Under the pieces are notes generated by a model. That model saw only the letters and a list, made by a program, of their open reading frames with translations. It had not been told where the DNA came from and did no database searches. The position numbers and the translations under genes were made by a program. Shown here piece after piece: positions 22,308 to 22,337 of a stretch of 64,000 nucleotides of DNA. Source of the DNA: Alphaproteobacteria bacterium (GTDB lineage: Bacteria > Pseudomonadota > Alphaproteobacteria > SP197); contig OZ242015.1 of assembly GCA_965204785.1 (NCBI GenBank), positions 2,263,032-2,327,031 of the forward strand, written 5' to 3'. Within the stretch, counting starts at the first letter, position 1. Every line of letters starts with the position of its first letter.

Positions 22308-22337
22308 GGGGGGGGGGGGGGGGGGGGGGGGGGGGGG
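22308..22337. repeat. Uninterrupted homopolymer G30
   Basis: Counted directly: ...attacgc + 30 g + tcgggcgcacgg. Coding similarity changes on either side. Confidence 0.95.

Follow-up and report, generated by a model that had tools for sequence, protein, structure and literature searches.

A run of 30 guanines at the junction of two mobile-element remnants in an alphaproteobacterial genome

A run of 30 guanines interrupts the 64-kb window (the whole stretch of 64,000 nucleotides that was analysed) between two pieces of coding sequence that have nothing to do with each other. Such a run raises the question of whether the two pieces are adjacent in the cell at all, or were brought together by sequencing or assembly; and, if the tract is real, what it joins, whether it acts as a switch, and how it came to lie there.

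The tract and its two flanks

As originally predicted, there are exactly 30 consecutive, uninterrupted G residues at 22308–22337 of the plus strand (C30 on the minus strand). This is the only homopolymer of eight or more nucleotides in the 64-kb window, and no other G/C run of ≥8 is found there, while a G/C run of length 30 would be expected ≈1e-10 times in 64 kb under an independent-base model. In the rest of the window, G/C runs of length 6 number 16 against 67 expected, and there is one run of length 7 against 22 expected. Because G/C runs are otherwise so strongly depleted relative to the base composition, G30 is an extreme outlier, which composition does not explain. (The depletion across the window suggests that selection, or a bias in mutation, works against such runs in this genome.) The tract is more than 22 kb from either end of the window and internal to a 3.75-Mb contig. 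A structured RNA or a terminator at the tract was considered and rejected: there were no Rfam matches in 20000–26000, and a promoter/terminator scan at the tract was unremarkable, with no promoter-like site nearby.

The features on the two sides of the tract are as follows:

21880–22030, plus strand: C-terminal fragment of a DUF3489 gene, N-terminus missing (PF11994; alignment to the DUF3489 gene of L067)
22031–22280, plus strand: frameshifted N-terminal pseudogene of a DUF2924 gene (75% amino acid identity to P0009, ≈80% nucleotide identity to L067)
22281–22307, no strand assigned: 27-nt filler, CCCCCGCGCACCTCTGGGCGATTACGC, with no homology to L067 or P0009 past 22280
22308–22337, plus strand: G30 tract, read directly from the letters of the window; the homologous tract in L001 is G23
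22337–22591, plus strand: 3′ end of an otherwise lost Mu-like gpF gene (head morphogenesis), comprising its last 84 codons and the stop, by homology to the Phage_Mu_F protein of L002
22593–23099, plus strand: conserved small ORF of 168 aa that follows gpF in a family of Mu-like elements, by homology to L002
23115–23395, plus strand: putative Mu-type right end, with direct repeats, an inverted repeat and a candidate terminus

The sequence upstream of the tract had been read as the N-terminal half of a DUF2924-like gene, and this assignment holds. The fragment is 75% identical in amino acid sequence to P0009, a PF11149 protein, as far as ..AQKR, and has ≈80% DNA identity to the DUF3489–DUF2924 cassette of L067, with a 1-nt deletion relative to it. 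The Pfam score for DUF2924 itself is weak and below threshold (18.5 bits against a cut-off of 31.2 bits); the DUF3489 fragment matches PF11994 at residues 1–38 of ORF 21915–22214 (E = 7.6e-10). The frameshift in the DUF2924 pseudogene falls between ..RLYRSQP and PRRVRRELL.., and two 28-nt direct repeats lie inside it, at 22065–22092 and 22143–22170. The usual order of DUF3489–DUF2924–serine recombinase cassettes, DUF3489 followed in tandem by DUF2924 as in L067, is thus kept, but both genes are truncated or frameshifted and the adjoining recombinase is absent. No recombinase or resolvase was matched by Pfam among the tested ORFs downstream of the tract, out to 46 kb, and the DUF2924 C-terminus was not found after the tract. 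The original prediction that both should be missing was therefore correct; the tract and a phage remnant stand in their place.

Homology to the intact cassettes (L067 and P0009) ends at about 22280. The 27-nt filler that follows has no other copy within the window at up to three mismatches, and its 11-mer matches elsewhere are at chance level. One such 11-mer, GGCGATTACGC, is found in portal genes of both the L023 and the L042 element family, and we considered the possibility that the filler was a portal-gene fragment. The adjacent 16 nt match at only ≈31%, however, and the candidate was rejected as a chance match, since the neighbouring bases mismatch and the number of independent 11-mer matches (≈11) equals the chance expectation.

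The sequence downstream of the tract had been described as an unrelated, unidentified protein. Unrelated to the DUF2924 side it is, but it can be identified, as the C-terminal end of a Mu-like gpF. It aligns to residues 452–531 of the 532-aa Phage_Mu_F protein (PF04233) of L002 with 58% identity (E = 1e-28), and the frame that starts at 22337 has a GC3 of ≈0.95 and a GC2 of ≈0.4, so that the coding of the right flank is genuine. The paralogues P0001 and P0002 (113 aa) extend 29 residues further towards the N-terminus than the 84 residues in the window. The small ORF at 22593–23099, for which no Pfam family was found, is 45% identical to its counterpart at 10366–10914 of L002 (E = 3e-26), and the gene order is the same in L001. 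Beyond it are three 24-nt direct repeats, GCGCCGTTTCACAC..CGAACG, at 23115–23244, and a 25-nt inverted repeat (23166–23190 and 23254–23278). The right-end repeats presumably resemble MuA-binding sites. The likely terminus is ..CCGTCCCCACACA at 23383–23395. Copies of the element in Roseovarius end in ..TTGTCACCCCACA, with flanks that diverge beyond this point, and the candidate terminus ..CCCCACACA (≈23395) resembles the ..CACCCCACA end of these copies.

Judged by these homologies, the right flank is the last ≈1 kb of a Mu-like prophage, of which at least 10 kb is gone, and the tract sits exactly at the truncation point. In L002, gpF is preceded by Mu Gp27, Terminase_6C and Portal_Mu, in that order. 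The window shares with Mu-like transposable prophages the end of gpF, the next ORF and a putative end region with repeated sites, and its relatives are multi-copy with the Mu-type head-gene synteny Gp27–TerL–Portal_Mu–Mu_F. It differs from them in keeping only the ≈1 kb at the right end, with no transposase, left end or target duplication: where transposase genes and a left end were looked for, to the left of the tract, the DUF3489/DUF2924 remnant was found. A tblastn search of the window gave no further copies of the element family. A truncation hotspot in gpF was also considered and rejected, other partial copies being broken at different points for different reasons. (In L033, the in-frame sequence upstream of the gpF break ends, by eye only, in what looks like an IS-transposase C-terminus.)

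The element family itself is abundant in relatives. More than 20 near-identical copies (>99% identity) of an element of at least 11 kb are present in the Roseovarius MAG CBDBLS01 (L002–L020), and two Rhodobacteraceae MAGs have about 6–10 copies each (10 in CATOSB01 and 7 in CATOSU01; L023–L032 and L040–L047). This high copy number fits a transposable, Mu-like element. The copies encode DUF3164, a methylase, DUF2730, Gp27, a terminase, Portal_Mu, Mu_F and the small ORF, and appear to end ≈0.9 kb after gpF, without tail genes, and this suggests that the defective element is an amplified deletion derivative. Just inside the right terminus is a 10-bp unit, GACCGGGCTG, in one to three tandem copies (≈11180–11215 in L002 and homologous positions in L005–L018), the number of which varies between the Roseovarius paralogues. 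The intact gpF-like proteins have a conserved, HExxH-like H-E-Y-x-H-H-L-Q sequence right before the 113-aa C-terminal region (≈9970–10000 in L002), which hints that this Mu_F subfamily has a metalloprotease-like site. The gpF remnant in the window does not include the motif.

The same junction in a second strain

Two-colour imaging is known to produce artefactual runs of pure G (PMC8002175), and the tract in the window has the looks of one: an uninterrupted G run that joins sequences which biologically do not belong together, namely two fragments of unrelated genes. The adjacency would then be absent from the cell, and the product either of miscalled poly-G, such as two-colour chemistry can yield, or of a chimeric join. 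G/C runs of ≥23 are indeed common in assembled IMG/VR contigs. Among the matches listed there, however, the run lies ≤150 bp from the end of the stretch in 98 of the first 120 stretches with G/C runs of ≥23, and this position near stretch ends is the signature of poly-G read tails (PMC8002175). The present tract is not at a contig end. (Several IMG/VR contigs, L144 at 6304–8319, L077, L150 and L167, have a number of internal G/C runs of ≥23 within 2 kb. In such contigs, C-run/G-run pairs directly abut or are ≈10 bp apart; they look like a different class, and a probably artefactual one.) The single contig of 3,752,649 bp that contains the window points to a long-read-type assembly.

A second assembly carries the same junction. 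L001, an ENA metagenome contig (ERZ25068762; 26.9 kb, labelled 26x) that was reached via its protein P0004, has a tract of G23 at 9922–9944, 875 bp inside L001. Its identity to the window is 98.1% over 9.8 kb to the left and 93% to the right. The 808 nt to the left of the tract and the 143 nt to its right show no substitutions; after these 143 nt, a SNP cluster begins. L001 also lacks 78 bp between the 28-nt direct repeats of the DUF2924 pseudogene (L001 ≈9757), 165 bp from the tract. The window keeps the native PGKLAALGNLD between these repeats, as in P0009, and therefore represents the older state of this segment. By these differences (the 98.1% and 93% identities, the 78-bp deletion and the SNP cluster), L001 is a different haplotype, and distinct molecules therefore carry the tract.

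The tract is thus almost certainly real and not a chimeric join. The other possibility, that the adjacency was made by miscalled bases or by the assembly, which the original prediction had listed as one of three options, was not borne out and is very unlikely, because L001, assembled independently and from another haplotype, reproduces the junction with the same flanks and a different tract length, and the tract is internal in both assemblies, on the 3.75-Mb contig far from either end. Adhesin genes with internal repeats over several kb are also resolved in both assemblies. With blastn, 21600–23400 had no match among plasmids, and a degenerate-pattern search of IMG/VR and two JGI metagenome scans likewise found nothing.

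What looks like a textbook poly-G artefact should consequently be neither trimmed nor used to split the contig, and the case is a warning that internal poly-G runs are not to be dismissed automatically.

The assembled length of the tract differs by 7 nt between the two strains (23 and 30) while the ≈950 nt of immediate flank are unchanged. Some of these 7 nt could reflect an erroneous consensus across a long homopolymer. The alternative view of the locus in the original prediction, as a hypermutable junction, is supported by the two lengths. They also have consequences for the reading frame. In the window, the downstream sequence was expected to be in frame with the upstream sequence, and ORF 22082–22591 does span the tract, consisting of the DUF2924 piece, nine glycines and the gpF piece (..AITR-G9-VGRTDEY..), with the last G of the run taken up by the V codon at 22337–22339. 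The two remnants are fused into one ORF because the length of G30 is a multiple of three. The source annotation of the 3,752,649-bp NCBI/ENA contig lists this fusion as a protein of 143 aa (P0008). In L001, the frame is broken at G23 and the gene call starts at an internal Met (P0004). Since G23 is out of frame, the fusion ORF is coincidental and the fusion protein is not conserved; P0008 is best treated as a pseudogene product.

Switching and the adhesin neighbourhood

Surface autotransporter genes are often phase-variable, and contingency loci in other bacteria use pure G·C runs of roughly 7–17 nt, such as poly-G in Campylobacter and poly-C in the Bordetella fim promoters. We considered the possibility that the tract is such a switch, its length toggling the DUF2924–gpF fusion (and the downstream ORF2) or transcription towards a giant adhesin gene nearby. 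The relevant features are:

12981–21605, minus strand: giant autotransporter adhesin of 2874 aa with DUF7933 repeats (Pfam autotransporter beta-domain and DUF7933)
12425–12651, plus strand: second, shorter copy of the end of ORF2 and the right-end repeats, 94% identical to 22992–23217

The likeness to a contingency locus is that the tract is a pure mononucleotide run whose length differs between close genomes, so that the reading frame across it is altered (in frame with G30, out of frame with G23), and that the adhesin gene starts ≈700 bp away, with the tract on its upstream side. At 23–30 nt, however, the tract is two to three times the length of known switches, and it lies between gene fragments, not in the 5′ coding part or the core promoter of an intact gene. 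The parts that it would fuse are the N-terminal, frameshifted DUF2924 piece and, of the ≈530 residues of gpF, only the final 84; the scan for promoter-like sites near the tract had found none, and there is no sign of switching.

The adhesin is one of two giant autotransporter genes in tandem on the minus strand (1–12080 and 12981–21605), with DUF7933 repeats in units of ≈770 bp; the first continues past the left window edge and for that reason does not figure in the ORF list. An identical arrangement, a shared ≈420-bp region and a remnant of the Mu-like right end, lies upstream of both genes. The segment 11009–12420 duplicates 20400–21825, which comprises the 5′ end of the giant DUF7933 autotransporter gene and its upstream region, and in this tandem segmental duplication the other copy lacks 21826 to ≈22985, the tract included. 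The paralogous adhesin thus keeps the ≈420-bp upstream region (21400–21825) without the tract. Regulation of the adhesin by the tract is unlikely because the shared upstream region stops ≈480 bp short of it and the paralogue has no tract. Taken with the nature of the fused parts, a phase-variation switch is most unlikely here. There is no indication of a cellular function, and we regard the tract as a curiosity and not as a working switch. We would class it among the slippage-prone homopolymers, as an unusually long member without apparent function that lies at a scar between mobile-element relics.

The remainder of the window is ordinary chromosomal DNA, with prfC and genes for a LysR regulator, Rieske oxygenases and an acyl-CoA dehydrogenase. 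The DNA past the Mu-like end (23400–25200) is decayed. Two minus-strand ORFs in it, 23865–25100 and 24145–24606, have no Pfam match and look by eye like gene fragments, which fits a pseudogene-rich region.

Origin of the tract

We consider it highly probable that the tract, its two identified flanks, its recurrence in a second strain and its different length there have a joint explanation: a genuine, vertically inherited poly(dG·dC) at the junction of two dead mobile-element fragments, variable by slippage and neutral. The left partner is the frameshifted DUF3489/DUF2924 remnant with the 27 nt of filler, and the right partner the last ≈1 kb of the Mu-like prophage. Slipped-strand mispairing is an established mechanism for homopolymer length change, and would have altered the length of the tract during replication. 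Since both flanks are dead genes, the tract is probably neutral, being tolerated because nothing functional would depend on it. Against this explanation, one would in general expect homopolymers of such length to shorten and selection to act against them, and elsewhere in the window there is hardly any G/C run of ≥7.

The 3′ end of the tract may have been supplied by gpF itself. P0002, which of the paralogues is closest over the first 16 residues that follow the tract, reads ..SYGGVGRTDEY, and in more distant homologues (e.g., L034 and L046) GG or GGG is found slightly further upstream, by a few residues. The 3′ part of the tract may thus be native Gly codons, the Gly-Gly-Val of gpF, which then served as the seed of an expansion. 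Rather than simple expansion, the foreign DNA at the junction and the filler of 27 nt suggest an end-joining event. Both flanks are truncated genes, and the neighbourhood is prone to rearrangement: repeated illegitimate recombination is seen in the segmental duplication, one copy of which lacks 1.16 kb, and in the loss of 78 bp between repeats near the tract.

The guanines could also have been added without a template, in a TdT-like manner, at an end-joined break inside the prophage, and have been altered by slippage later; this origin, one of the three readings in the original prediction, is compatible with a real tract. It would account for a complex junction in which the tract adjoins 27 nt of filler for which no source was detected and the joined sequences are unrelated, in local DNA from which G/C runs long enough to seed an expansion are almost absent. 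Known bacterial NHEJ polymerases, however, add one or a few nucleotides and not 20–30 of one base, and an insertion of 23–30 nt of a single base plus 27 nt of filler is far longer than a typical bacterial NHEJ scar. The closest paralogue, moreover, has Gly-Gly right before the shared Val, which would provide a templated seed. We therefore hold untemplated addition to be unlikely as the source of the run.

Alternatively, the Gly-codon run might have expanded first, within an intact gpF, and a G-quadruplex replication block at the run then have caused a one-sided deletion flush with the tract. The native sequence does resume exactly at the 3′ edge of the tract, with everything 5′ of it lost. A similar geometry is known from C. 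elegans without DOG-1/FANCJ, where each G4-induced deletion has one breakpoint at the G motif and a second one whose distance varies (PMC4654259); the present locus resembles these in having a G tract of about 20 nt or more and a breakpoint flush with one of its sides. In the C. elegans deletions, however, the G motif itself is removed and 50–300 bp are lost (PMC4654259), whereas in this bacterium, which is not known to have a helicase defect, the tract survives and >10 kb are missing and replaced by foreign DNA. A G run at the tract site was found in none of the ≈60 related gpF loci (1.27 Mb of related loci), and the idea that the tract is a recurrent feature of the element family was rejected for the same reason. 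A tract that preceded and caused the deletion is thus quite improbable.

More far-reaching versions of these two origins, with a template-independent dG homopolymer laid down at the break when the cleaved Mu-like prophage was joined to the other fragment, or with a self-perpetuating G-quadruplex hotspot that causes rearrangement, are decidedly unlikely. To our knowledge, TdT-like synthesis of long dG runs has not been described for bacterial end-joining.

On the preferred reading, that of a real and neutral tract between dead fragments, a natural G·C homopolymer of 23–30 nt persists in DNA that otherwise avoids G/C runs of ≥7, and does so in at least two strains. The locus therefore lends itself to measurements of homopolymer dynamics, and of the tolerance of G-quadruplexes, in a high-GC, alphaproteobacterium-like genome. 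Another long internal G·C tract in a chromosome-scale MAG was seen in the course of the analysis: a C19 run (G19 on the gene strand) at 951–969 of L055, from the Alphaproteobacteria MAG OZ251464.1, which is intergenic and lies just 3′ of ssb (..DDDIPF*).
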